A DNA stretch of 44,949 nt from Dimorphilus gyrociliatus (lineage: Eukaryota; Animalia; Annelida). How positions within the stretch are numbered: position 1 is the stretch's first letter; every line of letters starts with the position of its first letter. The notes beneath the pieces were generated by a model. That model saw only the letters and a program-made list of their open reading frames with translations. It was not told the DNA's origin and did not search any database. Where the stretch lies: the NCBI GenBank assembly GCA_904063045.1, contig CAJFCJ010000005.1, positions 95,011 to 139,959 of the forward strand, written 5' to 3'. A program made the translations under genes and the position numbers. This document shows positions 4,766 through 36,689 of the stretch, piece after piece.

Positions 4766-5585
4766 ACTTTATAAGTATACACCGTAGTATGTTGTAGTGC
4801 ACTGCATCCAGATAATTTAATTCACCCTTATCCGTGTTTAACACGTGACCATTTATTTCTTTAAAAAATGGCCTCCCATCTGATTTTTTCCCGATAGATA
4901 AGAGAGTAAATTTTTATATATAAATTGATTAAATCTATTAGATTAACCTTATCTAACCCTATGCTAACCTGGATTATTGTGAAAAATGTAGGAAATCAAT
5001 TATATTACAAATAATACAAAATGAAACAGATGTTAGTTGTTTTCAATGAATTTATACAACTCAATTAAATAGTATTTTTTGAATGTATTCAATTTTAATG
5101 AATGCTCAATTAAAGCTCGATAATTATTCAGTCTTTGGTATGCAAAAAATATCCGAGTAGGCTAAGTAAGTTTAAGGTAACAGTTTTTCATGTCTAAAAG
5201 AAAATTTGTTACATGTTAAATATGATCTCATCAGAATTTCAGCTTTTTAAATCTTTATTGATACAACAAGTCAAAATGAAAAGTACTTACTTTTATGGAC
5301 ACTGCATGTTTCAGATTAGAAACATTTTTCATTCTAATTCCTAATTCTAACAACCACTCTTATAACCATATTTTAGACAATAAAGTTATACTATTAACCT
5401 TTTTATAACCATTAAACATTTCTGTTCCTCAATTCTCTCTTAGAATACTGAGTGTCTATCTGTATATAGATAACAACGCATCAAGATTAATTTTTAAGTG
5501 TAAACAGAGTTAGATCTTCAATAAGGCTAAATAACAAAGTATTTAATTAGCAGATTTGCTTATCCAATATTAATGAAAGTAAACA

Positions 5586-7394
5586 ATGGATGTAACTGCT
5601 ATTAAAAATATGGAAAGTGGCTTTTTTAATATTTGCCAAAGACTTAAACAATTGTCAAAAACATTAAAATTTCTTGATTTCCCAAAATGTGTATTAAATG
5701 AAGAACGATGTAAAATATTGCAGAATTTGCTCAGGAATTGTTGTAGTGTAGAAATAATGAATTTATCATACAACAAGGAAATGGGAAGTGGATTTTTTAA
5801 TATTTGTGAGGGACTTCAACAATCAGTAAAAACATTAAAGTTTGTTGATTTGGCTGGCTGTGACTTGAATAAAGAACAAAGTAAAGAATTTGGAAATCTC
5901 CTTAAATATTGTTCCAAAATTGAAGGAATTGATTTATCATTTAATGATAAAATGGGAAGTGGGTTTTTTGATATTTGTGAAGGATTACAGCAGTCATCAG
6001 AAACATTAAAGTTTGTTAACTTCTCTTCCTGTGATTTGAATGAAGAACAAGGGACAAAGTTTGGAAATCTCCTCAAATATTGTTCCAAAATAGAAAAAAT
6101 AAATATAAATTGCAATGACTGGGTGGAATGTGGATTTTTCGATATTTGTAAAGGGCTTCAACAATCATCTGAAATACTAAAATTTATAAAATTAGCTTCC
6201 TGTGATTTAAGAGAAGAACAAAGTAAAGAATTTGGAAATCTCCTCAAATATTGTTCCAGGATAGAAGGAATTGATTTATCAGGTAACAATGAAATGAAAA
6301 GTGGGTTTTTTAGTATTTGTGAAGGACTTCAACAATCATCACAAACATTAACATTTGTTAACTTCTCTTCCTGTGATTTGGGAGAAGAACAAAGTAGAAA
6401 GTTTGGAAATCTCCTCAAATATTGTTCCAAAATAGAAAAATTTGATTTATCATGTAACAGTGAAATGGAAAGTGGATTTTTTGGTATTTGTGATGGTCTT
6501 CAAAAATCAGCAGAGACATTAAAGTTTCTTAATTTGTCTTACTGCAGTTTGAGTAACGAACAAAGTACAAAACTTGGATATCTCTTCAAATATTGTTCCA
6601 AAATTGAAGGAATAGATTTATCATTTAATGATGACATGGGAAGGGGTTTTTGTGATATTTGTGAAGGGCTTCAAGAATCATCAAAAATGCTAAAACTTCT
6701 TAAGTTGTCCTCCTGTGAATTGAGTGAAGAACAAAGCAAAGAATTTGGAAATCTACTGAAATATTGTTCCAATATAGAAAAAATTGATTTATCATTTAAT
6801 GATAAAATAGGAAGTAGATTTTTTGATATTTTTAAAGGACTTCAACAATCATCAGAGGCATTAAAGTTCGTTAATTTGACTGCTTGTGATTTGAGTGAAG
6901 AACAAAGTACGGAATTTGGAAATCTTTTGAAAATTTGCTCAAAAATTGAAAGAATTGATTTATATATTAATCAAATTATGGAAAGTGGGTTTTTTAATAT
7001 TTGTGAAGGACTTCAACAATCATCACAAACATTACTGTTTGTTAATTTGTCTTACTGTAGTTTGAAAGAAGAGCAATGTATACAATTTGGAAATCTCCTC
7101 AAAAAATGTTCCAAGATAGAAGGAATTGATTTATCAGGTAACAATGAAATGGAAAGTGGGTTTTTTAGTATTTGTGAAGGACTTCTACAATCATCAAAGA
7201 CATTGAAGTGTGTTAACTTGTCTAACTGCAGTTTGAGTAAGGAACAAAGTACGGAATTTGAAAATCTTCAAAAATATTGTTCAAAGTTAGAAATAATAAA
7301 TTCAAATAGTAATATGTTAAAGGAAAATGGATTTTTTAATATTTGTGAAGGACTTCAACAATCATTGAAAGCAATAGAATTTATTAACTTTTAA
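5586..7394 (+). CDS. Intronless ribonuclease-inhibitor-type LRR protein built from about 10.5 tandem 57-aa (171-bp) units
   Basis: GNLLKYCS recurs every 171 bp (5892, 6063, 6234 ...). Each unit holds two LxxLxLxxN/C motifs. A degenerate repeat with stops precedes the ATG, so the 5' end may be decayed. Confidence 0.85.
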   Translation: MDVTAIKNMESGFFNICQRLKQLSKTLKFLDFPKCVLNEERCKILQNLLRNCCSVEIMNLSYNKEMGSGFFNICEGLQQSVKTLKFVDLAGCDLNKEQSKEFGNLLKYCSKIEGIDLSFNDKMGSGFFDICEGLQQSSETLKFVNFSSCDLNEEQGTKFGNLLKYCSKIEKININCNDWVECGFFDICKGLQQSSEILKFIKLASCDLREEQSKEFGNLLKYCSRIEGIDLSGNNEMKSGFFSICEGLQQSSQTLTFVNFSSCDLGEEQSRKFGNLLKYCSKIEKFDLSCNSEMESGFFGICDGLQKSAETLKFLNLSYCSLSNEQSTKLGYLFKYCSKIEGIDLSFNDDMGRGFCDICEGLQESSKMLKLLKLSSCELSEEQSKEFGNLLKYCSNIEKIDLSFNDKIGSRFFDIFKGLQQSSEALKFVNLTACDLSEEQSTEFGNLLKICSKIERIDLYINQIMESGFFNICEGLQQSSQTLLFVNLSYCSLKEEQCIQFGNLLKKCSKIEGIDLSGNNEMESGFFSICEGLLQSSKTLKCVNLSNCSLSKEQSTEFENLQKYCSKLEIINSNSNMLKENGFFNICEGLQQSLKAIEFINF

Positions 7395-8401
7395 CTATCT
7401 GTTATTTAAAAAAGTTTAAATATCTTAAGTAGAGAATATGAATTATAAAGAAGAGAAGTTTATTGGTCTCTCTCAAACATTAAATGATAGTTAGTTCTCT
7501 AGAATTATTTATTACATGTTAGTTTTAAGTGAAAATCTACCTTTTCTGGTTAAAAACCAAGGAGCAACTATTTTGAACAAGTAAGGGCTAATTTTGCGAA
7601 ATTAACACATTTTCGCTAAAATTGATTTTGATTATTGCCCTAAAGATCTAATTTTTCAATTGTAGAACGTTTTTGTAGCATATTTCCAAAACTTTATATA
7701 TATATTTAAAAAATATATAAGATTATATAAACTGTAAAAATTTAATAGTTCTAACTGTCAACCAATATATTCTTTCTATTAGCTTCCAAAGTGGAAAAAA
7801 AAGAGAAACAGAACTCTCATATTTCAACACTCTTAATTGATTTTGGGAAGCAGTTAAAGAAAAAATCAATTTTTAAAAGTAATTTTCAATAGAAAATTTG
7901 TTTAAAAGCATTCCTTCATACTCGACCTACTGGACTTTTGTCACTGTCTCTTTTAAATTTAACATTGGTCACTTTTCAGGATCCACTATTCTGTTTAAAA
8001 TAGTGATAGGTTTGAGGATCTTTTTAAAAGAGTTTCTCTTCAGATGTTTTTATTATTTATAGATAAAGATTCTTACATGTGTTTTTGTTTTGAGCTCTCA
8101 TCATAGAAGTAAGGTCAGCCTCTCTTTTCAGCCCATCAACAATCAAATAAAATAATAAATTTGAACCAATATTTTTTTGGTGACTAGATCTTGGCAAAGA
8201 TGTTTTTTTCATTTTTACTTGTTCACTAAGGTTATTGGAAAGTATTCGCTACATTAGTTAATTATAGCACAAAGTTTGAAATATTTTAATTGTACTCAAT
8301 ATGAGGATCAACCTGAGAGTTTTACCCATTTGTGTCTTACAGCTAAAAAAAAATTACATAATATGTTTTGTCATAAATATTAATTAATGTCTTATGTATG
8401 T

Positions 8402-9255: not shown

Positions 9256-10677
9256 TTATTTAATTGGGATCAAGTCTTTTAAACTTCTCCGCATCTCTTT
9301 TTCATCTGACGTTTTTAGTAGAACGTTTCTGATCTTCCCATCGTCAGACTTAATCAAATGAGATATCTTTGCTTTCTTATATTCAACCCTATTTCTGTCA
9401 TTCTTAACTAACACTTTTTGTCCAATATAAGGCCTTTCTCTCTTTTCATCTTCTCTAACTTCTCTCATAACTTCTTCCAACATTTCTCTGTTCCATTTGA
9501 AACAAATCTTCTTCCAATTGTCCCTGGCTTTCTTGGAGTTTCGCCAGTTTGCCATTAAGTCTCCATAATATTTAATGAGAGTTTTCGGGCTTAGTACTTC
9601 TTGATCCGGGTCTTTCATGAGTGCTGTAAGGGGTTTCCTGGAGACAGCTTCCTCAGCAACTGCGAGTAGGCTTCTCCAACTTTCTTCTTTAAAACAATTC
9701 TTTAGGTAAGGATACAGAATCCATTTCACAGTTCTTATTGATCGTTCCCATAAGCCTCCTTGATACGGAGCTCTAGGGCTTGTAAATTTCCAGTTTCCAT
9801 TAAAGTTTTTTGAAACTTGGGCAAAGGTTGCTGCATTGTCCAATCTAATGTTTGTTATTGGTCCTCTTAAATATCTTATTCTCAGTAAAGCTAACTGAAC
9901 ACTATTCTTGTTAATAGATTCCATTAGTTCTAATGCGACAGCCTTTGTTTTTAAGCATACTCCTATAAGGACATATCTTTTTTCACTGTTTTTATTCTTG
10001 AATGGTCCGAACACATCTATTCCGATTGATTTGAAGGGAATCGGTTCACCCATAATTTGATCCTTACACTGTTGATTTCCATCATATTGGAACCTTTTGT
10101 TTTTCCTCCACTCCTCACACTCCTGGCACTTATCATAAACGTCATTTGCTAACACTACCTCTCCAACTGTCCAGAACAAATGCCTCAATCTATGTCGCAT
10201 GGCATTAGGTCCAGAATGGCCAGTTCTTAAATGTACATATTTCATAAGTACTCTCGCTACACTCATATTTTTATGCAATAAGGTTCTAGTTTGTTTATCT
10301 CTTAAAACAACTTCCAAATGTCCCCATTCATTTCTGGTCAATTTTAATTTTTCCATTACTGCAGATGGTATAATTTTCTGTTCCTTTGTTTTTCTCTCAT
10401 TAATTACTGAAGTAAATTTATTGGGATCACCTGCTACTTCTCTTCTGAAATTGCTTTCTTGTTCCCATGGCAAGATCACCTTCCCCAGAAGGACTGTTTG
10501 AACACTTTCTCTCTCTGCTGCATCTTCCAAACTGAACCAATTGTCCTTTAAAGAAAAATCTCTTAATTTTGACAATTTATCAGCCAGATTATTCTCTGTG
10601 GGTACATATTCCCATTGATAATCCTCAGTATGATTAAGAATTTTCTTGACTCTTTCTCTCTCGAATCGTAGTATCAT
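9256..10677 (-). mobile_element. BEL/Pao retrotransposon fragment: end of RNase H plus complete integrase ORF, no LTR seen
   Basis: WEYVPTENNLAD, H-x4-H...C-x2-C zinc finger, SIGIDVFGP, RLDNAATF, SPRAPYQGGLWERSIRTVK, and the BEL-type C-terminus SDDGKIRNVLLKT...RRSLKDLIPI. Confidence 0.88.
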
Positions 10678-10806
10678 CCCTAGCTTTCAATTCTGACTAT
10701 TCATTAATTCTTTTGAAAAGTAATAAAATATTAAATTTTACAACCAAAATAAAAAATTGATTTTTAAATCATTGTCATTAAAATTTCCCTTTTATAACAA
10801 AATTCA

Positions 10807-13777
10807 GATAAAAAGCACGCAGTTTGCGGAATAGATGAAAATCAATTACCACTAATTGAAGAGTGTTATCATCAGATATGGAAAGAAAATGGTTGTTTTG
10901 GTCAACAATTTAAAGTTGAAACTAATTATCAAACAATGACTGTTTTACAATTTGATAATTATGCAAAAGATGTATATGAGAATTCTATAAAATTATATGG
11001 TGTGAATTTGCATTCAAATTTCTATAGGCGAATCTGTTTCGAACATATGGATGGCAATGAAATGAATATAGCATTCAATTTTAAAAAAATTGATTATAGT
11101 GGATATTTTGAAGGTTCTCTATATGATCCAAAACATGTTGTAGATGGTTTACATGATAATAAAATTACATTGGGTTCTTGTACAATATTAAAGAGACTCT
11201 TACGCATTCTTCAACCCATAATTACAATTCATTTAAAAGGGCAACATACTCTCAAGAAAGTAATTCTATGGCCAACCAATCAGCAAAGTAGGTCAATAAT
11301 TTGATTATTTTTTTTCTCTGCAGATAAAAATCTATTGTTTTCTCCTTTAGTTACTCAACAATTGGAAATTTACATGGACAATATTTTTAATATCTGTACT
11401 GATGATAATATCATATTGGCAAATAATTCACCAACAACAGTGCTATGTAACAAACTACAACAATCTAGAAGTTCTAGTTTAACAGTTAAATCAAAAAATA
11501 CAAACTTTTTGCATTTATGCGAAATTGAAATAATTTCTAGTAAAGTTATCATCATTTTTCAATGATTGATATAATTGTTTCTTTTCTTTCTATTTATAGA
11601 CAATATAGCCTATTTGAAAGGAGTTACCTACAAATTTTCCCAGATGGACTTGTTTATATTAACTGATGGTTTTACAAGTGAAACTACACAGGTGAAAATT
11701 GGAGGGCAGTATTGGATTGCAATTAATCTATTTGCTTACTATAATGTTCTTGTTATTGATTTTATATTACCGGTACAAAACACTCTCTCTAATCAATTTC
11801 GTATTGAACTTACAAATGAAAATCCATACTTAGAATATGACCCATTAAAATACAGTTTATGTGGAGAACATCCAGACAATACAGAAAGTTTCATTTCCCA
11901 CTTTGAAATCTCGTATTCACTTTTGTGCCCTAGAGGAGGGGTCGAAGGTCAATTTGTTGTACTTAGAACACAAAGAGCTACTCCTGTGACATTTGTAATT
12001 GGTGAAATAGAAGTTTTTGGCAATTATATAAGACAATCCAATGAAGAAAATATTAATATATTGTATCGTAAACCAGTATGGACATCTTCAAATTATAATT
12101 CTATATACACTCCTCAAAAGTTAACTGATGGTCTGTACAATAGTTTCTTTCATTCTGAAGAAGGTTTCCAACAATGGGCAAGAATTGATATGTTTTCAAA
12201 GTACACTATTTATAAAATGGCAATTTTAAATGGAGATATGCATGGTATTGTTTGACTCTAATCTAATATTCTTTTAATCAGTTATTATCATTTGAATTTG
12301 CAGGTTACAATACAGCAAGGCATATCAATGGTTTAGTGTCGAATTATCAAGATTTTAGCATTCAGGATTATCATTTATATTCTGAAAAATGTTTTACGAA
12401 TAATGAAGACTTTTCAGGTGGTGAATATAGATTATGGGAATGCAAAATGCCGTTTCCAATTGGTCGATTCGCCATCTTTTTCCAAAATTCACATACTTCT
12501 ATCAATATTCTTGAAGTAGAAGCGTACGGTCAGAAAATTGTAGATAACGATATGGTTCTCTTACCAATTGCGCATATTGATAGGAATAGTAATGCTAAAA
12601 GTATTTCTGACAAAGAAGAAAGTGCTCAATATCCAATAAAGATTATAGATGGTTTAGCCAACAATGCCTTTACTGATGGATTCTTATCATGTTCGGGTAC
12701 TTTAACAACAAATAATAATGAAGTAGGACGAATAACACTCTATATGGATAATCAGTATTTAATAAATCAAATAGGTGTACTAATTCCATTTGAAGCGCCT
12801 AAAGGTTAGCATCTTCTTTTAATGTTTGTATCATATTCTTTCCCATTCAAATATTTCTATGTTGTTGCAGAAAATTTTGAAAATATTCAAGTTACAGTTG
12901 AAATGATCATTGATACAACTTTACAAAAATCAGTTTGTTCAAATTTGACAAACAACTTTAAAATAAAGCAATTGTTGTACAAATGTGAATATATTGGCGA
13001 TAGAGTATCTTTTTATAAATTTGGTGGAAATCATTTAATTCAAATTTGCGAAGTTTATATTTTTGGTAGAAAACAATTTGTCAATAACAATAAATCAATT
13101 CATTCTGCTGCCAATCTTATATATTCATTAGATACTTCGACAATCTTTTCAAATTCAATTTGTAATAGTTTCTATCCTACTAAAGATTACTTTATTGAAT
13201 TACCAGTTTATTCTCAAATTTCTGCAATTGGCTTCCTTTTAATGAAAAGTGTAGACTTTCAATCTGATTTAGATGTTTATGCTGTATCTTATGGGATAGA
13301 AATACTATGTACAACTTTAAATATATACCATCTTCGCGTTGACAAACCTACAAATTTTACATTTCTTTGTAAACAGGAAGTGTTTGCCAAATATTTAAGA
13401 ATTTCCTCACAAATCAAAACAAATATTACTTGTAATTATTACATAATAATTAAAAAAATTATTGAGAATATTCCAGGTTTGAGAGAGATATGTTTTTTTA
13501 CTTGAGCTAATCAATCTAATATTTTGTTTCTGGTTTTTTACACAGTAAAATATCAATTAAAATATGAACAAAAATGGATTAAGCCATCCTACATCTACTC
13601 AACCATTCATCAAATACAAAATGTTATTGACTGTTATAAAATTTGCAAGATGGATAGTCAAGATTGTCAAAGTTTAATCTATTCAGAAACATTAAGACAA
13701 TGCAATCTCAGTTCTTTTCCAATTTTTCCAAATTCCAATGAATATTTATTGCAATCAATAGATAATCACTATTCCAT
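10807..13777 (+). CDS. Multi-exon extracellular protein: Cys-rich N-terminal module, about five tandem F-type lectin / F5-8 type C-like domains, and a C-terminal PAN/Apple-like domain; 5' exons not found, 3' end cut by the Gypsy LTR
   Basis: Repeated domain-closing strands LHLCEIEI, VIGEIEVFG, INILEVEAYG, IQICEVYIFG. Domain 3 reads NILYRKPVWTSS...LTDG...FHS...QWARIDM. PAN-like Cys pattern DCYKICKMDSQDCQSLIY...QCNLS. ORFs are separated by short GT-AG introns; exon limits approximate. Confidence 0.68.
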
Positions 13778-14412
13778 TGTACAACTTTGGTTATATTTTA
13801 CATGCTTGAACTCTATTATTTTATGCAACATATACATGTACATCTTAAAACCTACGCAAGAAAATGCTATAACATTGGCCAAACATAAGTCTGATTAGTC
13901 AGCTTGAAGGCTCATCTTTAATTACCAATAAAGGTTTGGCCAAGTTATAATTTAATTAACTTGCCTAGGGTGTGGCCAAGTTATAATTCAATTAACCTTC
14001 CTAAATGTTCAACCTTGTAACATCCTGTTACTAAAGATAAATATGAACTACACATTTCGGCAACTGTAAAGTGATGATTGGATGTCAGAGACAAACCTCA
14101 AAGTATATAAATCCTCATTATTCTCATTTGGCATGCAGCTTCCATCTGGACCCAAGGACCTGGGAAAATCATCTGGAAACAACCTCCACTGGAACCATCC
14201 ATCTACTCCTCAACATTGGAAGACAGTTTGGTAATTTGGCAACCTGCTATTACAAACTATCTACTCTGCTATTGAACTCTCATATTGTTACTTGCTTAAG
14301 TATTATTATTGCGAATAAACCATTTTAATTTAAACATTTGTTTAAAGGTTCGAGTAGAACCAGTATTGTTATAACTTGCAAACGCATAGATTTTGCCAGC
14401 AAGAGCAGTACA
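13778..14412 (+). repeat. Gypsy 5' LTR
   Basis: Four substitutions by eye relative to the 3' LTR. TATA-like tatataaa near 14104, aataaa at 14314, and an internal 37-bp-period direct repeat ggccaagttataatt(t/c)aattaac at 13938 and 13975. Confidence 0.97.
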
Positions 14413-14416
14413 AATT

Positions 14417-14434
14417 TGGCGCAGTCGACAGGAT
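14417..14434 (+). promoter_or_regulatory. Primer binding site, tRNA-Ser type
   Basis: tggcgcagtcgacaggat lies 4 nt after the LTR and resembles the complement of the tRNA-Ser 3' end (...ATCCTGCCGACTACGCCA), the primer type used by Drosophila 17.6/297-like gypsy elements. Confidence 0.8.
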
Positions 14435-14472: not shown

Positions 14473-17400
14473 ATGGCAGAAGGAGGAAATGGAAACGCCA
14501 CTGGGGCAGTTACAGACTCTAACCCTTCAACCCCAGCAACTCCAACAATTACAATTCAGCCAGCAGGAATGTCAGAAAGGCAACAAAGACTAATTGAAGA
14601 CTATGATAGATTGGTGAGTGAAATGAAAAGAAATCGAATCACAATTCCAACAGATCATGGAGATGGAACACATCACCCAGCACAGAACCCAAATGTTGAT
14701 ATCACAACAGTAATTCAAGCATTAAGGGCTGCTTGGGACCGCCCTCAAAGAACTATTCTCAAGTTGTATGATGGAAGCAAGGAGTGTTCAAAATTCAAAG
14801 AAGACTTTAATCAGGCATGTTATGCTTATGGTTGGATAGGAGAAGATGTTGTGAAAGCAAATCTTTTAGATTATTTAACTGGTCCTGCAAAGGATTTGGT
14901 GTTGGCTCTGGATGGAGAGCCTACTGTGGAGGAAATATGGAAAGCCCTCCATGACGAATTTGATCTGGATCCTTTGGAGTATCAAGAGAAATTGCTTAAC
15001 TTAAAGCAAATGAATGGCGAAAGTGTGGTTCAGTTTGTTAATAGAGCAAAGAAATTGATAAAGAGGTTTTCTCCACCTAGACCAATGGAACCACAATTGC
15101 TTGCAACTATGAAAGAAATAAAACTGATGGAAGTTTTACAAAGAGGATTACAACAGGATATTCTACATTTAGTGTACACCTTACATCCTAAATGTCAAAC
15201 ATTGGCAGAACTATATGAGGCTGCTAAGCAAGCAGAAACTTCATTAAAACTAACTCAAAGAAAACCGATCACAATGGTGTCAAAATTGGAAACTCAACAA
15301 AGAAAAGAGACCAAAAAGACCCAGGTAATCAGAAAAGATGCTTCTACAGAAACCCCAAATTTCTGGAATAGAAAGCATGTACCTGACAACAAAAATGCTA
15401 CTAAAGAAAAGTTTTCAAGCCAAAAAGTCCAAAAGTATGCACCAACTACAACAAATAGGTATTATAAGAAAAATCAACCAGCAAAGACGATACTGAAAGA
15501 GGAACCTAAGCTACAAAAATTACAAACATTAGACAATGAAAGCATGTCAGAAAACGACGAAGTTCAAGATATTCTCTGTTTTTCAGATAGTGACGAATCC
15601 ACTTGTCAGCTGTTACAAAGCAAACAATCTGAGCGAAATGCTTCAACATTTATTGGACAATTTGAAACTAATACTGGTTTTAAGTTTGATGCCTTGATAG
15701 ACTCTGGTAGTGACAGATCTTTCATTTCAAAAAAGGTATTAAGACAAGTTCAAGGAAAAGCATCCTTCCCAGAACAAACTGTGAAAAATGCTAGAGATGC
15801 TTCAGGAAATAGCATCGAGATATGTGGAGAAATCATTCTCAGACTTTATTTTAATGAAAAGATTATTAAACAACGCTTTCTGATCAACAAAATCATTACA
15901 CAACAATGTATTATTGGGTGTGACTTTCTACAACAAAATGGAGCTACCCTTGACTTTGGCAAGAGACAGATTATACTCCAGCCAGGTACAGAAAAGAATT
16001 ACCCTGTTGGAACACAACACTTATCTTTCAAAGGGTTTTACCCAGTTCCTCTTATTATGAAAAAGAATGAGAGTCAAATACATACCCTTCAGACAACAAT
16101 TGAACAAGAAAATCCCGAGATGAAGAACAAAGTTACCCAAATTCTGGCAAAATATAAAGAAACTATTGCAGAAGACAGATTTGATATTGGCAATCCAGAG
16201 GTACCACCCTTGGAAATAACTCTTGAACCAGGTTCAACACCATATAGACAAAGGCCATATAGAATGCCTCCTCAAAAACAAGAAGAATGTAAGCAACAGA
16301 TAGCTGAATTGGTAAAAAGCAAAGTTATTCAACCAAGCAAGAGCAATTGGGCTTCACCAATTGTTTTCGTAAGAAAGAAGGAAGGTAGTCTACGAATGTG
16401 TGTAGATTATAGAAAACTAAACAAAATGACAGTTAAAAACAAGTATCCACTGCCAAATCAAGATGATCTTTTTGACCATTTGGGAGGAGGAAATAAATTC
16501 TTTTCTACAATGGATTTGACAAGTGCATACCACACATTAACATCAAGAAAGAAGATAGGTCTAAAACAGCATTTATTACACCTTTTGGCTTGTTTGAATT
16601 TATTAAGATGCCTTTTGGATTAACCAATGCCCCTCCTCATTTTAGTTATGTAATGAATTCATTTGTGCTAAAGGATGTAAAGCATTTGTGCCTAAACTAC
16701 CTTGATGACATAATAATATTTACCAAGTCGCTGGACCAACATTGGGAAGCATTGGAGACCATTCTTCAACAGATTCAAAAGTACAATTTTAAGATTAAAC
16801 TAAGTAAATGTGTGTTTTTGAAAGAACAAGTTCAATTCTTGGGACACATTGTATCAGAAAAGGGGATTGAAACAGATAAGTCCAAGACAGATAAATTATA
16901 TAATTTACAGCCACCAGTGTTTGCAAATTCACTACTAAGCTTTGTTGCATTTTGTGGCTATTACAGAAAATTTATACAAGATTTTGCAAGAGTAGCTAAA
17001 CCTCTGTATATGTTAATGAAACTACATGGGAAAAAGGATAAATTGCAATGGACTGAGGAAGCCAAGCAATCATTTTTCAAGTTGAGAGATGCAGTAGTTA
17101 ACCCTCCTGTATTACAACTACCTGATTTTGCTAAAGATTTTCACTTAACAACAGATGCATCGAATGTAGCTGTAGGAGGAGTTCTTGAACAAGTTTATGT
17201 AGATGAGAATGGGAAGAAAACAATGAAACCCATTGCCTACGCTTCAAAACAATTCAACAATAATCAAATGAAATATGCAGCCTATCAAAAGGAAGCATTT
17301 GGTGTTTACTGGGTTGTAAAGAAATTTTTACATTACCTTCAAGACAAGCCATTCTTTTTATATACTGACCATCAGAGTCTAGTACAAACATTTAAGCAAA

Positions 17401-19028
17401 ACAAATTGAATGTCAGCACAGCAAAATGGGTCATGGCTTTAATGGATTTAAAATTTACAATTAACTATGTGACAGGACGAAAAAATAGAGCAGATGCATT
17501 AACAAGATTAGAAGAATATACACCCCAAGGAAAGTAACATTTGAAGAGCTAATTCATGGAAAGATCAAAAAGGAGAATTCTCCCTCTATTTCAGTTAAAA
17601 TGGAACAGTATGAACATACACCAGAGTTAACTTTTGTAGCTACCAGTGATAACAGTGAAGAGAAAATTGATTTGTCTTCTGTTGACTTACAGTCAGAGCA
17701 AGAAAAAGATGTGAATTTAAAATCAATTAAAGAATATTTAACATTGGATGGTCAGCTACCTATTCCTTATTTTGGAACTTTTACACCTTTCATAATGGAG
17801 ATGTTTGTTCACAAGGAAATGATCTGGATTATCCTTGAAGAAAGAAACATTCTGGTTTTACCTGACCATTTGATGCTAACTCTGCTCCCTAAATTCCATA
17901 AAAATAAAATTCACAATCACCATGGACCCAGAATGACATTACAAATAATTACAAAGACCTTTTGGCACCAAAATTAAAGATTATGATTGAGAATTCAATA
18001 AAGGATTGCACTTTGTGTGAACAAATGAATGGTAGGAGTAGAGTATACCCTTTGGTAGAAACCTTTCACCCTGCATCACCAATGGAGTTGGTAGCCATGG
18101 ATATAATGGGACCCTTACCCATGGTTAAGTCATACAGATTCATACTTGTGATAGTGGATCATTTCAGTAGATACACAGTTTTATATGCACTCAAACAGCA
18201 AACCAGTAAAGAAATTGCAAACCTTCTTTTCAACAGATTTTTTCCCATTTTTGGAATTCCAAAACAAATGTTGACAGATCAAGGAAGAAACTTTGTTGGT
18301 AAAGCTTTTAAAGAGTTTATGAAGGTATTAGGTATTGAGAAAATCCAAACAACAGCTTATAGAAGCCAGAGCAATGGACTAGTTGAACGAAGAAATAGAG
18401 AAGTGAGGAAGGAAATCAATAAATTAGTGGTGGAAGAAAATCAGCATAACTGGGTTGCAAACCTACCCTTGATTCAAGCATTTTTGAATCAATCACCTGT
18501 AGGAAGTACAAGACTACCACCCCAGGAACTTCTTTTTGGCACCAGCACAAGAACACTGATTGATGTAACAATGCATACTACCTCTCCTGAAACAAATGTA
18601 CTATTTGTATTCAATCACCAGCAGCAATTAGTACAGTTAAGAGCTACAGCCTTCTGTAAATCCATCATGGCAAAAGAACAATATAGGGAAAGAAAGAATA
18701 GAAATCTCAATCTTCCAAAATATTTTGAGGTTGATGATGAAGTATTCTTAAGAAATGATGCTGCAAGAATTGCAATAACAAAAATCCTTCTTTNTAACAA
18801 AAAATCCCTTCTTTAAAATGGTTAGGCCCATACCGAATAACAAAAGTCAATCATCAAAAGTGGATATATGAAATACAAATGGATGATAATACATGCAAGT
18901 TGGTACATGGTAGCAGATTAAGACTAGCCAATGAATCTAATAAGTTGCAAAAGCAGGAAAGAAGCAACAACAATCTTTCACCTTGTGGAGAAGGAAATAC
19001 ACACACCTCCAATATCTTTCTCAGGTAG
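14473..19028 (+). pseudogene. pol: Gypsy gag-pol (Gag, PR1, RT, RNase H, integrase) with several frameshifts or stops
   Basis: Capsid-like gag without a CCHC knuckle. PR1 ALIDSGSDRSFI (D at 15700). RT motifs WASPIVFVRKK, LRMCVDYRKLN, MPFGLTNAP, YLDD. RNase H LTTDAS. Integrase VAMDIMGP, TDQGRNF, NGLVERRN, and a GPY tail. Breaks near 16540, 17537-17600, 17970 and 18794. Confidence 0.93.
18775..18815. other. Single N (18794) inside a short duplicated sequence; probable contig or gap-fill junction
   Basis: taacaaaaatccttcttt N taacaaaaaatcccttcttt: the same ~18-20 nt on both sides of the N. Confidence 0.75.
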
Positions 19029-19384
19029 AAGGAAGAAATGACTTCCAATTCCGTTTGAAGAATCAAAAAGGCCAGAAGTCATTGCCTTGTGTGACACAGG
19101 AGCATTGAGATCCTTTATTACTGAAAAGAAATCAAGTTAATGGATGTTACAATTAGGAGAAAGAAACAATTGGCTTACACAATATATAACTTCAGCTGAT
19201 GGGAAAGCTTTAAAGCAAAAAGGAAGCGTAAAGCTGAATATCCAATTTGCTGAGAGAAAGTATGGAACAAGAATTTATAGTTATGGAAAATCTAGACATA
19301 GCAATAATACTTGGTTGTGATTTCCTACAAACTGTGGGAGCAAACCTCAATTTTGAAGCTAAACAGTGTTTCTCTCAAATTTGA
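19025..19384 (+). pseudogene. Second retropepsin (aspartic protease) domain downstream of the integrase, disrupted
   Basis: EVIALCDTGALRSFIT (DTG at 19093-19101), flap-like ITSADGKALKQKGSVKLNIQF, then EQEFIVMENLDIAIILGCDFLQTVGANLNF. One in-frame stop (19138) and small frameshifts. Confidence 0.88.
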
Positions 19385-19690
19385 TAGAAGGAAAGGGAAC
19401 CTGGCTGAAAGAATAAGGCAACCTCAACTAAACAAAGTCACTATAGCCATGATGGGACAGCATGACTCTTCATCAGAAAGTTCAGATAGTGATGACTCAG
19501 AGATGGAAGTTACTAATTCTGATACTGGTTATGACACAAGCAATACTTTCAAAACAGACAGTAATTACAGTCTCAATAACCTTCAAGCTCATCTGAAAGT
19601 GATGACACAGAAACAAATAATGAACTGGATCAAAATACAGATTCAGAGGCAAACATTATCTCTGATAGAGAAGATGAAATATCTAGTTCA

Positions 19691-19810
19691 GACGATGAGT
19701 CAATAATTATTGAAAGCAAATTATTGATATAACCCATTCGGATAATGAGTCAATAATTATTGAAGGTGAAATTATTGACATAACCCATTCAGATAATGAG
19801 TCCCTCATAG
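19691..19810 (+). repeat. About 2.3 copies of a 51-bp (17-aa, D-ESIIIEGEIIDITHS-type) repeat inside an acidic D/E/S-rich spacer
   Basis: Units start at 19691, 19741 and 19792; the first unit is 50 bp, which shifts the frame. Confidence 0.85.
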
Positions 19811-20028
19811 TGGTAGATTCATCCCAAGATGAGAAAGAAAATACAAGTGACACAGACAATGAGTCAGTCATATTTTTAGATGAGACTAAAATCATCTCTG
19901 AACAATTAGATTCCCAACAAGAAGTGGAACCACAATATATAGAGTTAGAAGATGGAATAACTATCAGAGTGGAACAACAACACAAAATTTTCAACCATTC
20001 AACTATAGCCAACACAGGAAGAGCTAAC

Positions 20029-22448
20029 ATGAAACAGATGTTGTGGCTTCCACTAGTGATGACTGTAATGGTGATCTGTGGCTGCATCCACTCAATAACA
20101 GTCCCAAAACCATCCTACCAAGGTGCCCATGTTACAAGTGCAAACATTACCTTAACATTTAAACCACCGTTATACTTTTGTTCTAACCAACTACCAAGCC
20201 AGGCATTTGATCTAGCAGATGAGCCAACTTGTAATATAGAATCACAAGAAACCAAGACAATTACAGCTGATATCTATGAATTGAACTTGGAAGAAATTGA
20301 AACAAGAGCAGTAAAATGTCAAGTGTATCTAAGAACTAATTTTTACACTTACTATTTCTTTGGAGCAAAGAAGAGGAGGATTGTTAACTCAGTTATCAAA
20401 GTAACTCATGATCAATGCAGACAGATGATAAAAGACAAACGATCTTTTCAAGGAAAACCTTTAATGGTGAAAAGAAACACTTGGATCCACCAAGATCAGT
20501 TTCCTGCTGCCTACACATGGCCAACAACGACCAAGGTGCTGGAATACACCACAATTATCCAGTTTGGCAAAGCATATTGGCAACCTCCTAATATGAAAAT
20601 TACAACTAATCTGGACTACCTGGAAGATTGTTTACCAGGGCAGTCCTATTGTGAAACAGAAGAGGCAATTATTGTCTTTAGGAACCTCAAGAATAATTAC
20701 ACACTTGGGCAACAATCACCATGGATAAAAATTAGCAACAGAATTAGTTGTATCAAATTTGCTGGTCACTATTCTTGTCCAGGGTATTCTATTCTGGACA
20801 TCCCTTATCAAGATAAGTTCATTGATGGAATTGGTGGTCCTGGAACAAAAGTACTAGTACCACTGGAGGAACAGAGTTTAATACAGGAAACAAGCAAGGA
20901 ACACCTATACAATTTGCTACAATATCAGAAGATTGGCAAAAATGAAGAAAAACGACTATTAAACTATCCCAATAAAGTTAAAGAACAAATTATACTATAC
21001 AAGCGAAACAACCCCTTACCAAGTCTTAACCAATGGTACAGAGAAACAAACACAAAGTATAAACTAATGAGAAATAAAGGCACACTCAAGGAAGTTGTGA
21101 TATATCATCTACAACAACCCATTAGTCCATCTTACTGGGAGCTGGATAACTATTATATCCAAGAAATGCTGCAAGCAGTCAATTGGACAAGGGCAACAAG
21201 ACAATCTGTCACGATTCAAAATATGTATACAGTGAGAAAAGAATCAAAAAGAAGGTATTACCAACATTGGGCATATGGTATAAAGGACCACCAGCCAGAG
21301 AATTTAAGATTACCTATGAAGGAATTTATTTTACTCTACACATGAGAATGGCTAAAAAGCAGATGAAGAAGGAAGCAAAACTGAAACATAAGATAAGTAA
21401 AAACCCATACCACAAATTCCCATTGGAAATGAGAGAAGCTGCCCAAACATCTACCTTACTACATGGTATTGATTCAAATTTTAAGAATTTAAAAAAGTTT
21501 ACCCAACAGCTGTCAAGTCTTCTCTGCAATCAATTTGTTCAAAGAAGCAGAATGATGGCATTACTAGCAAATTTGGATCCTCAATTGACCACAGTGTTAA
21601 CAAATGAGTTGGGAATGCACAGTAGTCAGATGGGAGAATTAGCTATAATTAAACAATGTTCACCAATAGCCTCAACAGAAGTAGTTTGTGACTTAAGCAT
21701 GATAAAAAAGAATAACAAATGTTCTCAATTTTTACTTGTCACCATGAACAACCTGCTTTTCCAAGTAGAACCAGTTACTCATGTTTTACAGCAAGTCAAT
21801 CCTGAAGAGATTACCTATAATGAGTGTAAGTCTAACAAGTTATTCTACAAAACAACTCACAACCCATTAAATCCTATAAGAAACCAACCAATGAAAGACA
21901 AAACGTATGTGTATTATTCAGAAAGAGGATGCAGATTTCACACTGTGTCTGCAAAATCCATGCAGTTACATATCCACAATCACCTTTCTGAACCAAAAAT
22001 TGAAATTGCCAGATTAGCTGATCTACTCCACCATGGGGTAAAGAAGGATATTGCATACCAGCACTCAAAAATTAAGCAAGTTATCAGTTCACTGGAACAG
22101 AAGCAGGCAAGGTATGATAACATGGTCACTGTTGCAGAGAAAAATGGCATTGTACCCAATTTATCTGGAATTAAAAAGTTTTTCCATAGTTGGTACTATA
22201 AACCTGGGAAAACACTTTATGTTATCATACGAAATATTTGTTTGAGTATTGTAGTGTCAATGGTATGTATCATCATTTTCAACTATATTATTGGAAGAAG
22301 AAAACAAAGAGAAGAAATTGCTACCCCAAGTGAGAGCACAGATAACTCTCCTGAAAACCCAAAACTAATGAAACAAAGTTGTAGCTTTAGTCAACATCAA
22401 ACTAATGAAGAAGAACAACCACCTGTAATTCTCATTAAATCAAGATGA
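20029..22448 (+). CDS. env: Env-like class III fusion glycoprotein (gB / rhabdovirus G-like), about 800 aa, one frameshift near 21180
   Basis: Signal-like MKQMLWLPLVMTVMVICGCIHS. Fusion-loop-like AVKC...FYTYYFFGAK...VTHDQCRQMI and AYTWPTT. gB-like LCNQ...LLANLDPQ...MHSSQMGELAIIKQC. C-terminal TM (NICLSIVVSMVCIIIFNYII) and a short tail ending just before the PPT. Confidence 0.8.
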
Positions 22449-22464
22449 AGGGACTCATCTTCAC

Positions 22465-22479
22465 AAAGAAGGGGGAAGT
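22465..22479 (+). promoter_or_regulatory. Polypurine tract
   Basis: aaagaagggggaagt immediately 5' of the 3' LTR. Confidence 0.88.
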
Positions 22480-23114
22480 TGTACAACTTTGGTTATATTT
22501 TACATGCTTGAACTCTATTATTTTATGCAACATATACATGTACATCTTAAAACCTACGCAAGAAAATGCTATAACATTGGCCAAACATAAGTCTGATTAG
22601 TCAGCTTGAAGGCTCATCTTTAATTACCAATAAAGGTTTGGCCAAGTTATAATTTAATTAACTTGCCTAGGGTGTGGCCAAGTTATAATTCAATTAACCT
22701 TCCTAAATGTTGAACCTTGTAACATCCTGTTACTAAAGATAAATATGAACTACACATTTCGGCAACTGTAAAGTGATGATTGGATGTCAGAGACAAACCT
22801 CAAAGTATATAAATCCTCATTATTCTCATTTGGCATGCAGCTTCCATCTGGACCCAAGGACCTGGGAAAATCATCTGGAAACAACCTCCACTGGAACCAT
22901 CCATCTACTCCTCAACATTAGAAGACAGTTTGGTAATTTGGCAACCTGCTTTTACAAACTATCTACTCTGCTATCGAACTCTCATATTGTTACTTGCTTA
23001 AGTATTATTATTGCGAATAAACCATTTTAATTTAAACATTTGTTTAAAGGTTCGAGTAGAACCAGTATTGTTATAACTTGCAAACGCATAGATTTTGCCA
23101 GCAAGAGCAGTACA
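22480..23114 (+). repeat. Gypsy 3' LTR
   Basis: 635 bp, TG...CA, near-identical to 13778-14412. Confidence 0.97.
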
Positions 23115-24120
23115 ATAATATTCAATGTCCAGTTATTATTCAACAAAAAAAGAAAATATTTTCATAAAGAGTAACAAAAGGAAAAGCCTTATTGTGAATA
23201 TTTGTGCTAAAAAAGAATTGAGAGCAATCTGTAACATCAAGACATCTGGAAGGGCAATTGCTGAAGATCTATTAACTAATTTAAATATAAATGAAAATAA
23301 CCTACCAAAACTGGAAAATCTGAGGAGATTAGCCTATTGATATTAATCAATAGGCCAAAATCAAGGCCTAAAGAACCAAAGAAAATTGATTTTGAAATTA
23401 ATACAACATTTATACAAGATGATTTTCTTCAAAGTGATATTGTTGTAAGAAATCAAAGAGTTTTACTATTTGCTTCCAAGAAAGGTTCTACTTGGACCAG
23501 TACTTTGGCAGATTGGTAAATGATTGGAAAGGACAATTACAGTTGTGACAAACCAGAAATTCCTACAATTGCAATACAACAAAGTACATAAGCTTCTATT
23601 TGAATTCAGTGGTTTGCCTTATTATTAAATTATTGTAGAATTTGGGATACACACAACAATATAATAGGGAAAAGAAGAAGGTAGGACTGCTGAAACAAGT
23701 TTTGGCATTACCTTTTCTTCCAGATGAGGCCATTCTAAACAGTTTTTACATGCTAAAAGATGAGGCCTTTGAGAGAAATGAATTTTTGGATTTTTTCCAA
23801 TACATTGAAAGTACTTGGATTAAGCATTCAATTTGGACACCAGATTGTTGGTCTGTATTTGATCTTGCCATCAGGACCAACAATAATGTTGAAGGATGGC
23901 ACAGAAGAATAAATGAAAATACTCCTGCAAAAGGCTCATTTTATATGCTCATAGATATTTTAAAACAGGAATCAAGTTTCATTCCAGTTGTAGAGAAACT
24001 TCTGTCAGAAAAAAGGCTAAAGAAGTATCAGAAGAAAAGTGTCATCCACATGCAGAACCAAGTATTTGCTGTTTGGGATGAATACAAATTGGGAATGATT
24101 ACATCTGCTGTCCCATTGCA
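23115..24120 (+). pseudogene. MULE transposase remnant
   Basis: RPKEPKKIDF..DFLQSDI..RVLLFAS, LALPFLP, YIESTWI, WSVFDLAIRTNNNVEGWHRRIN. The central catalytic region is missing. Confidence 0.82.
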
Positions 24121-28826: not shown

Positions 28827-29609
28827 AAAGTGGACGACAGGAATATGTGGACACCATAAATTTTGATAGGCCAACTTTTATAATTAATGGTTAAAATTGT
28901 TTTTTTGATGCAAATTAGTATTTTTTCTCTAAATTTATATAGAAAAAGACTTAAATTGATATAAACATTTTGTGAACATTATTAGCAAAAATTCTTAGTA
29001 ATTTTCATAAGTTTTTTCTTTATTTGGCCGCGCGACATGTTTATTGGAACATTGAGTTGACATCCGGTTTAGCATTCAAATAGATGTCTCAAAAAAAATT
29101 TTTTTCAACTTATTTCCTGTTTTAGGTTAAGTTAATTAGTTATTGAATATTAAAAATTACTGTATATAATTTATATTGTATTTTTTTTAATTATGGAGCG
29201 GAGTAAAGATATTAGGGATCTTGTAATAAAAAAATATAGACAAATAGGGAAATTGAGGGCAACAGCAAGAATTTTAGTAATGGCACCATCATCAGTTAGT
29301 AACATCTTGAAATATAGGCAACCAGAACAAGACAATAGGGGCAGTCCAAAGAAGATTTCCGACAGAGAAATAACCAGGATGAAAAGGATTGTGAAGAAAC
29401 TGAAAGATAACAAGCAAAGAGTGATAGCAGCAAAGGTATTGAAGGAATTAGAAGGAGATTGAAGCATCAGAACAATTCAGAGGGGGCTGAAAACACAAAA
29501 CTTCAAATACAAAAGAGTCAGACAAAGAAATGATCTCACCTCCAAAGGTTGTAAACACAGAAAAGAATATTGTCTCAATATTATTAGCAAATATCTAGAC
29601 TGATCTACA
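28827..29609 (+). mobile_element. 5' half of a Tc1 element related to 293-1794, truncated just before catalytic D1
   Basis: TIR-like aagtggacgacaggaatatgtggacaccataaattttgataggcc after TA, a 5' region homologous to 1436-1794, and transposase MERSKDIRDLVIKKY...YLD*ST that breaks at about 29610. Confidence 0.85.
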
Positions 29610-31492
29610 ATAAATACATTAGGTTTTTTATCAATTCCATCATTTTTCATTGTTAGTATGTTGCATATTTCTTGTAGAGTTTTGTATATTTCACCGCCAA
29701 TTACTATTAATATTGAAATTAAATAGTAATCAGGAATTTTATTGATCTCTTCCGCTTGTATAATTTGTTTCTGCAATATCGCTTTAGGGAGAAATGATGA
29801 GCTGTCCATTTTTTTAAGTGATTTAAACTTAATATGATTAGGGCAAATCCCCTTTGAGCTATGTTTAAGACATGACGGTTCTGTACTATATAATTTAATG
29901 TTCTTTTCTTGTATCGCCTCTTTACAGGGTCCTAATAATTTTGAACATCCATCAATTAATATCAATGGTGAGAATGCTTCTACAACTGCATTAAATTTCT
30001 TTTCAAAGATTCTCTTAAACTGATTATCAAAGTTATCGTGCTCGTAATTATTGTTAAATGTTATAAATAAATGTTTGTCTTTCAGTATATCTTTCATTTT
30101 TTTCAAAGTATTTTTTACAGTTGCGTTCTCTTGTTCATCAATAAAGTAGGATGAATAATTTTCTTCATAAATCTCTTGAAGGCAGTCTTTTAAACCATTT
30201 TCCTCTTGTTTGAATGTTTTCAAATATTTCTTGCACTCTTCATTCATCCTCTCATCTTCTACTTCAGTTAGAGAAATAATATATTTTTTAGACTTTAACC
30301 TTTGAATAACCTCATCATTACTATTGCCTTCAAAATTAATTAAGACATCAATAACCTTTTCATGTTGTGTCTGAACATATTTAATGAATGCTTCTTTAGT
30401 TTCCATTTCATCCTCACCTTCTCCAAGAAAATAGAAATATTGATGATTTAGGTCCAAACCGGCACCCTTTAATGCGTCTTGACTTACACTATCTTGATTT
30501 GTGATTAAATCATGTTTACCCGCTACAAATCCACACCATATAGATTTGTTGTCATTTGTATCATCAATCATACTTGTCAATAATCTATTCGATGTTCCAT
30601 CAGTTAAAAATAATGATGTAGTTTTTGTTAGATGCGACTTTAATTGTTGAATATTATCATCAGATAGAGTTGAATTTGGTAGTTGTATTATAAAGTTTGG
30701 TTTCATGTTGAAATTAGGAAAGTTTTTAACCTTACTATCTATTTTAATAACAGAAGAATATAACTTTCTTTTAAATATTTTATTTTTATTGTTCAACCAT
30801 ATTACATCTTGTCTCTTTTCTAAACAGTTTTGTATTTTTAATAAATTATCATCATTTTCATCAAAAATCAAATGAATTACATCATTTTCCATCTCTCTCT
30901 TCAAATCATCAACAATCGATAAATAATTAACATTTCCCTCATCGTTTTCTTTTGGATTATATATAACTATTGGAACAGGACAACCTCCATTTTCCTTATA
31001 TTTTTTAATACTTTTTAATAGTAATTTCAATGCAGGATATTCAAGACTATCCGATGTTATTAATACTTTCTTTTCTTTAAGAATATCTATAAAATTCTCT
31101 ATAAATTTGTTTTCAATCTCTTCTTTTTGCTCATCAAATGTGTCATTTGAAGGATGACAGACAAATGTTTGATCAAATTTATCAATAGAAAATTTTTCTT
31201 TTAGTTTTGATAAAATTGTTGTAGTTTTTTTTCTTGAAGAAGAAGAATCTGCGGTCTTATTTCTTGATTCAATCTCTTTATATGTTTCAATACAAATTTC
31301 TCCATTAAAAATAATCATCTCCTTCTGAAAAGAGCAGTCAACTCAAGGTATTTTGTTTAATAATACAATCTGGTCAAAGAAATGAAATATTTAGTTGTTT
31401 AAATTTTAATAGATTATATGAAAAATAGGGTATTAAACTTTTCAAATAAATATTTTATTTACCTGCAAAGATGATTCTGGAGGAGGAGTTGC

Positions 31493-31537
31493 TGTTTGAG
31501 AACCTGATCGCGATCGGTAGGTGTTGTTGTGGTGGTC

Positions 31538-31572
<35 letters not shown>

Positions 31573-31744
31573 AGTATCAAGTCTCATGTGTCATGCTTCG
31601 AGACGTAATCTCGTAGTTACGTAATCACGTGTATCCACACGTGATAATTATTAGCTTTGGTCATTAGAATACAGCAACCGTTTGATACAGTTACCGACAG
31701 TAAATATACATAGTTCGTAATTGTAGAAGAACCGATCTTGAACA
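31493..31744 (+). repeat. BEL 5' LTR with internal (AT)n tract
   Basis: Direct repeat of 36285-36536; both copies carry a 27-nt AT tract. Confidence 0.95.
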
Positions 31745-34700: not shown

Positions 34701-36284
34701 AGGTTGTACAAAAAATTGAACTTGAAGGGAGTAGAAGTTACTTTTCATACAGACAATAATGCAGTATTTACACTGATACAAAATGCAGATGCTAAGTTGG
34801 ACGCCTTCACTAGAAATAGGATAAGATATATCATAGACAATTCAAATCCTTCTTTATGGAGAAGGATTGAAGGCAAGGTAAATCCTGCTGATCTAGGGAC
34901 CAGGAGAAGAAGACACTCAGACAATGAGTTGTTGCCACCAGTCATATCTGGAATGACCCAGTGTGTAGCACTAGGGGACATTTTTAGGCCATTCTCTTAT
35001 GATTGGGAAAAGATGGTTAGGATAGCCCAAATTGTTGTGAAATGGGCTCACTCAAAAATACCAGTCTATCAACAGAAAAGGTTGGCAATAGCCTACTTGC
35101 TGAGAGATGAACAAAAGTATATCTCAATTGAGAAGTTTCCCCAATTAGAACCATTTAAAGACACCTATGGGGTGATCAGGATAAATGGTAGGCTAAGGAA
35201 TGCATATGGATTACCATATGATGTGCGGCACCCCATCCTTGTTTAAAGCTATAGTATTTACATCTCACAATGAAGCAGCACATCAAGGTGTACAAAAGAC
35301 AAGGGCGTGGATTAGGAAGCGGTTCTGGCTGCATAAAGGGACAGCACAGATAAAGGCCATTGTTGAAACATGCCCTTACTGTGTACGGTATAGGAGGGGC
35401 CGGACTTATAGTATACCACAAGCTCCTCTGCCAAAATCGTGTACTGAGAAACCACTGCGACCCTTTAGAAATGTAGGAGTAGATCACGCGGGACCATATT
35501 ACGCTGATGAAGGTGAACAAAGATTTGTTCTACTCATAGCCTGCTACCAAATGAGGGCAGTACACCTGGAGATCTGTACATCAACATCCTTTGGACACAC
35601 AAAGGGGGCATGGACTAGGTTTATGGCGAGGCCAGGCCACCCAGAAAATGCACACTCCGATGGTGCAGGAGCCTTTAGGAGATTGGCTGAGGAAATGGAA
35701 AGGGCAGGAATCTGCTGGAAACTGATACCAGCTAATTCTCCTCATAGAGGAGGGTTATGAGAATCTTTGGTGAAACCAGTCAAGGGTACCCTGCAAGTGC
35801 TAAACAAGGAGATACCAACAGAGGAAAGCCTAAGGACTGCAATCACTCTGACCGAAAGTATTGTCAATCAAAGACCATTGACAACTATCCTGGAGGATCA
35901 CACAGAAACCCTCCTCACTCCAGCATCCTTCTTATGGATTCAATCTAAGGAAAGCAAAGGAATAAAAAACTCCTACAAACAGATGGAATCTGTCAGAGCT
36001 ATGCTGGAGAGAAGATGGTTCCAGGAGTACATAGCCACTTTACAAACTACCTCAAAATGGAACAAAAAGAGTGGACGAACTCCGAGGGCTAATGACCTAG
36101 TAGTCCTAGTTAGTGACTCCTTAAAACGTCACAATTGGAAGATAGAACGTATACAGAAAACCAAGAAATCAGCTGATGGGCAGCCTAGGAACCTACAGAT
36201 TCTCACTGAAAGGTCCTTAGTGTGGCGAGATCCGAGAAGGGTAGTCCCATTCTAAAGAAACACGAGGTTCTTTAGGGGGGGGAG

Positions 36285-36329
36285 TGTTTGAGAACCTGAT
36301 CGCGATCAGTAGGTGTTGTTGTGGTGGTC

Positions 36330-36364
<35 letters not shown>

Positions 36365-36536
36365 AGTATCAAGTCTCATGTGTCATACTACGAGACGTAA
36401 TCTCGTAGTTACGTAATCACGTGTATCCACACGTGATAATTATTAGCTTTGGTTATTAGAATACAGCAACCGTTTGATACGGTTACCGACAGTAAATATA
36501 CATAGTTCGTAATCGTAGAAGAACCGATCTTCAACA
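36285..36536 (+). repeat. BEL 3' LTR
   Basis: Preceded by the purine tract ggggggggag and followed by TSD gttgc. Confidence 0.95.
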
Positions 36537-36689
36537 GTTGCCATTCTTTTTAAAGAATTAGACATTTAAACTGTCTCTGTTCGAAGACAAATGAATAAAT
36601 GAAGGATTGTCAATAATGCGAATAATTAAGTATCTTGGGTTTTCCAACTTTCGTTTTTGGCTAATTTTTTATCAATATTTGCAGTGAAG

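Follow-up and report, generated by a model that had tools for sequence, protein, structure and literature searches.

A second, divergent retropepsin between integrase and envelope in a Ty3/gypsy element of the annelid Dimorphilus gyrociliatus

Ty3/gypsy elements usually carry one protease, which is placed before the reverse transcriptase; this layout is a custom and not a formal criterion. The window analysed here is a stretch of 44,949 nucleotides from Dimorphilus gyrociliatus (GenBank assembly GCA_904063045.1, contig CAJFCJ010000005.1, positions 95,011 to 139,959 of the forward strand) and contains an element which, unlike this usual layout, has two protease domains, the second (PR2) situated between integrase and envelope gene. 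An initial annotation of the sequence had regarded PR2 as a dedicated protease that releases or matures the downstream envelope product, in a layout not known to have been described. Here we ask whether PR2 is a genuine and intact domain of this element, where it came from and what it may do.

The element lies on the plus strand between two long terminal repeats (LTRs) of 635 nt each, at 13778..14412 (TG...CA) and 22480..23114, which are 99.4% alike (4 mismatches in 637 aligned bases) and spaced by 8702 nt. The primer binding site (PBS; 14417..14428) is located directly behind the 5' LTR, and a polypurine tract lies at 22465..22479. The gag region (14473..15666) starts with the first ATG at 14473, is in frame with the pol protease and has a weak PNMA capsid-like Pfam match below the cut-off (E 4.5e-4). 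The pol aspartic protease PR1 (15667..15990) carries the motif DSG and scores 58.3 bits against a home-made profile of fetched pol proteases, with weak matches to Pfam RVP. Reverse transcriptase and RNase H (16360..17444) match Pfam RVT_1 and RT_RNaseH as well as profiles. The integrase (17860..18923) comprises a zinc-binding part, the core (Pfam rve, E 1e-13) and an SH3-like C-terminal domain; its Integrase_H2C2 and Integrase_p58_C matches are weak. PR2 (19025..19381) is followed by an acidic linker rich in Ser, Asp and Glu (19382..20028, D+E+S up to 60%), a hydrophobic stretch predicted to be an internal Env signal sequence (20032..20109), a predicted gB-type (class III) envelope ectodomain (20110..22208) and a predicted Env transmembrane anchor (22209..22301), with the end of the open reading frame at 22448. 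LTRs, PBS, polypurine tract and the order gag-PR-RT-RH-IN are the hallmarks of Ty3/gypsy elements (Metaviridae), and the order IN-PR2-env given in the initial annotation is confirmed inside the two LTRs. A home-made profile of 66 chromodomains gave no positive score in the window. Elsewhere in the window, at 2357-2816, a relic of a related element was observed, with a 79% match to the LTR end and an env fragment of 44% identity to the protein P0002.

The diagnostic motifs of PR2, ALCDTGALRSFI, SADG and IILGCDFLQTVGANLNF, were placed at 19084-19369 in two plus frames with a stop codon between them, outside the track of open reading frames, and the catalytic DTG is found at 19093-19101. Read as 113 residues, the stop and one frame change being replaced by X, PR2 passes the curated cut-offs of both Pfam RVP_2 (27.3 bits; cut-off 20.3) and Pfam RVP (26 bits; cut-off 20.7). 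Against the profile of pol proteases it reaches 54.6 bits and covers positions 6-102 of 107. A sequence search of the PDB with PR2 delivered no meaningful match. PR1 and PR2 share 32-37% identity and align over 101 residues (32% identity, E 5e-13), so that the end-to-end but distant likeness noted initially holds. On the nucleotide level, the comparison of the two gave nothing beyond chance words of 8-21 nt, and a fresh local duplication of PR1 is therefore rejected. By its motifs and profile matches PR2 is a true retropepsin, for which dimerisation and proteolytic activity are predicted.

In the window PR2 is broken by several small indels. Five public sequencing runs (X1-X5) from two studies match the stretch, and the best-matching runs may be the source of the window itself. 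The breaks are absent from the runs: four of four share the same small indels relative to the window at 11 or more places of the coding region, and further indels of this kind lie inside PR2. Over 5.6 kb, the longest contig of X1 shows 3 substitutions relative to the window but 37 gap letters, and such a ratio is the pattern of assembly error. When the window was cut where the runs differ, 13 of the 15 pieces had exactly one stop-free phase each, and these phases succeed one another as the sizes of the indels imply; one of the remaining two is short and open in all three phases, the other lies inside PR2 with its further indels. The net phase across 18880-19800 is equal in X1 and X5, as judged from record lengths. 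Because the frame breaks coincide with indels in the runs, they are most likely assembly errors and not decay; neutral decay of this copy is rejected on the same grounds together with the continuity of phase. A short duplicated stretch around the only N of the window (18780-18814) is absent from all four runs, which indicates a local misassembly.

The phases being continuous in the runs, PR2 shares the frame of integrase and env. In natural copies a single open reading frame of about 2650 codons most likely extends from gag through env, as judged from the phases of the window pieces and not from an assembled sequence, and the polyprotein probably has the order Gag-PR1-RT-RH-IN-PR2-acidic linker-signal-Env. 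Surveys of domain order on error-prone assemblies can thus miss whole domains.

Could PR2 be part of a second element, nested or in tandem, or of an assembly chimera? The many assembly errors of the window would fit such an origin, as would the lack of a clean target-site duplication: none was found at the element flanks (13770-13777 and 23115-23122), where 4-5 nt on each side differ. This difference may reflect recombination between copies or misassembly, the two ends then stemming from different insertions. Against a second element or chimera, single contigs span IN-PR2-env in X1, X2 and X4, no LTR-like or terminal repeats flank PR2, no gag precedes it and no RT follows it. The spanning contigs largely refute a nested insertion, and we consider this whole group of explanations very improbable.

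As to the identity of the element, two published names come into question. Dingle designates the Gypsy-like elements of Dinophilidae in the genome paper (PMC7854359), and Dgyr_errantivirus_1, with seven copies and a gB-type env, was listed by Chary and Hayashi (PMC13524379). The element resembles both, being a Ty3/gypsy element with a gB-type env behind the integrase (PMC7854359, PMC13524379). The PBS listed for Annelida_Polychaeta_Dgyr_errantivirus_1 is the reverse complement of the 12 nt of the element, its LTRs measure 631-636 nt against 635, and its spacing is about 8680 against 8702 (PMC13524379). The closest named protein likewise comes from this species, and a Dimorphilus gyrociliatus gene model is among the matches of the env search described below. 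From PBS, LTR length and spacing, env type and host, the element very likely belongs to this known Dingle/Dgyr_errantivirus_1 family. The published table differs in giving a GAG-POL with chromodomain and a separate ENV, whereas the element has one likely open reading frame and no chromodomain score (PMC13524379). The chromodomain was called there with HHpred and AlphaFold (PMC13524379), and the label of GAG-POL plus separate ENV may go back to the same errors or to a real difference. The available texts on Dingle and Dgyr_errantivirus_1 make no mention of a second protease, the word protease occurring a single time in either main text and in another context, and the Dingle gene map (Extended Data Fig. 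3d, PMC7854359) may show the domain.

The view that the layout is undescribed stands so far for Ty3/gypsy elements: the openly available article texts on gypsy and other LTR elements, as distinct from figures, Repbase and subscription journals, yielded no second-protease layout. It falls for reverse-transcribing elements at large. According to the available text, Wendovirus (Caulimoviridae) has a pair of divergent aspartic proteases: the first is part of pol, while the second adjoins the gene for cell-to-cell spread, is of unknown function and has been proposed to stem from recombination (PMC9794742). Like the element, Wendovirus is reverse-transcribing with two divergent aspartic proteases; unlike it, this plant pararetrovirus is without LTRs or integrase and has its proteases in separate open reading frames, and the partner of its second protease is a movement protein, where that of PR2 is a membrane-inserted fusogen (PMC9794742). 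Since the element possesses integrase and LTRs, Wendovirus-like Caulimoviridae are an analogy only. Among the fetched loci, the caulimovirid-like genome L003 has its second aspartic protease in a frame of its own, directly before that of the movement protein (5639-7118); the gene order, coat - PR-RT-RH - unknown frame - protease - movement protein, differs from that described for Wendovirus (PMC9794742).

A single polyprotein that ends in Env also has parallels. Atlas virus (Belpaoviridae) makes a polyprotein with Env at its C-terminus, as is likely for the element, from which that virus differs as a BEL/Pao member with a class II envelope and no second protease mentioned in the available text (PMC9094657). 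The same arrangement is found in the GAG-POL-ENV errantiviruses of PMC13524379 (supplement 4), again with no second protease mentioned in the portion available.

Synteny of the type IN-PR-env was sought in other hosts and found in none of the 42 fetched loci. An integrase match is present in 32 of these, four of which have a protease further downstream. In L009 a gag frame stands in front of that protease; in L014 and L017 RT follows it, which assigns it to the next or a tandem element; in L019 the distance to it is 8 kb, and it is situated where the contig ends. Two protease matches occur in 11 of the 117 fetched proteins with any such match, and none of the 11 lists an env family. The env-bearing loci L001, L002 and L006, and P0107, have no protease between IN and env: L006 and P0107 show the order gag-env-pol with one protease, and L001 and L002 are distant gB-env relatives whose pol ends in an acidic tail before env. 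In L001 (4900-6230) the slot behind the integrase that PR2 occupies in the element is taken by a long domain of pol without annotation and by an acidic tail. Protein searches for long polyproteins with the env of the element and for PR2-bearing proteins of 421-1343 aa found nothing, both being weak negatives; scans of viral contigs with env and RT and of genome contigs with the env alignment revealed no relative. PR2 is thus genuine and unusual, the family that carries it is known, and the layout has been seen so far only in this family of one host. L004-L042 and P0107 are eukaryotic Ty3/gypsy elements in contigs filed as bacterial or archaeal genomes, one of them, L006, with a gB-type env and gag-env-pol order; such elements are likely bin contamination.

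Where did PR2 come from? The Dimorphilus gene model P0008 represents a sister family, with RT 58% and integrase 55% identical to those of the window. The end of the acidic linker is 59% identical to residues 277-330 of P0008, in which it stands directly before RT and not before env; P0008 is a spliced gene model whose linker-RT junction may not be contiguous in the genome. Contigs of a sister family, about 82-87% identical and covering both halves of PR2, start matching the window at 19019; a match from X2 ends at 19982, and the similarity to P0008 ends at 19986. The resemblance of PR2 and linker to the PR-RT junction of a sister family points to recombinational capture. In the simplest reading, protease and linker would have moved together, as a block of about 960 nt, between the PR-RT junction of the sister family and the IN-env slot, and PR2 was likely captured by recombination from the pol of that family. 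The direction of the transfer is presumed, the PR2-like contigs being known without their surrounding context.

In a tree of 64 dereplicated proteases (from 116 candidates plus three; 108 columns), PR1 and PR2, which are mutual best matches (37%), are placed as sisters with a support of 91/51, which is not firm. This grouping could also mean that the pol protease was duplicated long ago, with PR2 present from the origin of the Dingle clade onwards, and that the sister family received its pre-RT linker from the IN-env slot by the reverse transfer. The several PR2-like variants in X2, X4 and X5 would agree with such antiquity, as would the acidic tails that end pol before env in L001 and L002. 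An identity of 37% is, however, what is expected of two sister-family pol proteases, lying at the high end of the values for families whose RT identity is near 60%. Moreover, the PR2-like contigs resemble PR2 much more closely than the families resemble each other in their RT, IN or env proteins, so that a later transfer is needed in one direction or the other. We regard an ancestral PR2 as improbable and retain capture from the sister family.

PR2 is not limited to the copy in the window. It is present at full length in three of the five runs (X1, X2 and X4), and DTG, flap and C-terminal motif are intact in these runs and in the window; no substitution in DTG is listed in the main contigs of X1, X2, X4 and X5. 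In X3 and X5 a stretch of PR2 (19121..19185, plus strand), present in X1, X2 and X4, is lost in frame with a net 60 nt, and these two runs have no full-length contig across the loss. The loss falls between the DTG strand and the flap and leaves the frame into env open. It would shorten the distance from the catalytic Asp to the flap Ala from 34 to 14 intervening residues, a change of spacing that very likely destroys the fold. As the loss occurs in two of five runs, PR2 is dispensable in some copies. A derivative 9-13% diverged (record 20 of X3, record 24 of X5) has the RT start joined to the linker and is without RT, integrase and PR2.

These copies raise the possibility that PR2 is a passenger, a captured protease-linker block that is idle now and whose frame is kept open only for read-through into env. 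The in-frame core deletion is found on the main high-depth contig of each of the two runs (depth not being copy number), the diverged derivative does without PR2, the linker is common to the pre-RT region of P0008, and PR2 is absent from the distant gB-env relatives examined. On the other hand, all motifs are intact in the window and in three of five runs, and the end branch of PR2 in the tree (0.77) is shorter than that of PR1 (1.38). Between PR2 and the sister contigs, 12 of the 13 differences listed, with one indel place left out, are at third codon positions, an excess with a binomial p of 1.7e-5 against 1/3 for these best-conserved stretches; p rises to about 0.017 when half of the divergence is taken as neutral, and to 0.14-0.37 for a neutral share of only 10-25%. 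This signal may date from the time when PR2 was the pol protease of another family. Also speaking against an idle PR2, a closer donor contig was not found in four runs at a threshold of 80%. Taken together, an idle PR2 is a serious possibility, which we hold to be clearly short of an even chance. The core loss and the likeness of PR2 and linker to a sister PR-RT junction in any case weaken the word dedicated in the original proposal.

What PR2 could do depends on its position relative to the membrane. A hydropathy scan of eight pieces, with the PR2 pieces and the integrase tail lying outside it, shows two hydrophobic stretches, 20032-20109 (mean 2.07) and 22209-22301 (2.69), both behind PR2; the signal role of the former is predicted from its hydropathy. 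A search with the N-terminal half of env against 1.84 billion representatives gave 11 matches, three of which match rhabdovirus G, herpes gB or Monjiviricetes fusion families with E 0.0012 or better (Pfam families Rhabdo_glycop_FD and Monjiviricetes_fusion). A profile comparison of the same half with the env of P0107 was not significant. The matches listed by Foldseek for a model of this half (mean pLDDT 61) are all herpesvirus gB, the best having E 2.7e-7 and a low TM-score of 0.26 for a half-domain model. The ectodomain between signal and anchor is predicted to be class III and gB-like.

PR2 stands before the only N-terminal hydrophobic stretch; it would therefore be cytosolic and the ectodomain luminal, out of its reach. 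Maturation of Env by PR2, one half of the role first suggested, is not supported; release, the other half, is plausible given a single polyprotein. We tentatively favour PR2 as an accessory cytosolic protease that would cut Pol free from the membrane-tethered Env leader, a reading which includes the likely capture from the pol of a sister family and a single long polyprotein and which we place only a little short of an even chance. As judged from the phases of the runs, no stop codon interrupts the frame between gag and env, and a continuous protein presumably results. The stretch 20032-20109 would insert Env into the ER. There the ectodomain would be released by host signal peptidase, and the signal remnant would hold Gag-Pol-PR2-linker on the cytosolic side. 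Copies of PR2, a retropepsin with intact motifs, would dimerise when crowded on the membrane and cleave close to the end of the integrase; the later maturation of the particle would be a separate task of PR1. The source of the PR2-linker block would be a sister Dingle family, from whose PR-RT junction it would have been transferred by recombination. Since the PR2 core is missing from some copies, PR1 or other copies can probably stand in for it. Against this reading, PR1 could make the same cut.

The alphavirus capsid protease is also a cytosolic domain, placed in its polyprotein immediately ahead of the envelope signal sequence. It is an analogy of position only: it is a serine protease acting as a monomer in cis, whereas a retropepsin must dimerise, and no homology exists. 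A stricter form of the proposed release, in which a selected, early PR2 unhooks Gag-Pol from the ER-anchored Env precursor and PR1 matures the particle, is doubtful in our view. Should it hold, Metaviridae would gain their first example of proteolysis divided in this way, with a counterpart in Wendovirus, whose second protease sits next to the movement protein.

PR2 might instead be the leader protease of a spliced env message, made as PR2-linker-Env without Gag-Pol and cutting itself off. Spliced env messages are known in insect errantiviruses, and an acceptor-like pyrimidine run ending in CAG (19008-19024) is found just before PR2. A single site of this kind can arise by chance, however, and with IN and PR2 in continuous phase in the runs no splice is needed; we judge a spliced leader to be quite unlikely and keep to release from a single polyprotein.

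In single-frame Gag-Pol-Env elements, enzymes of the cytosol are synthesised in one chain with an envelope that is inserted in the membrane and holds them there, which is an unsolved problem. A second protease at the Pol-Env junction suggests one, testable, solution, and natural variants with and without intact PR2 coexist in the same species. If PR2 is only a passenger, it is a curiosity of the transposon family of one worm. The PR2-linker block also illustrates module exchange between co-resident retroelement families.

The window contains further features. A BEL/Pao-type LTR element at 31493-36538 has LTRs of 254 nt that are 97% alike and matches to protease, Peptidase_A17, integrase zinc and DUF5641 families, with no RT match; it is probably internally deleted. 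A second BEL/Pao-like integrase fragment (Integrase_H2C2, DUF5641) is located at 9256-10686 on the minus strand. A duplicated open reading frame with no Pfam family lies at 29477-31342 and 43235-44949, both on the minus strand, about 91% alike over 1.2 kb. At 5530-7410 on the plus strand, an open reading frame with leucine-rich repeats consists of units of 171 nt (57 residues).
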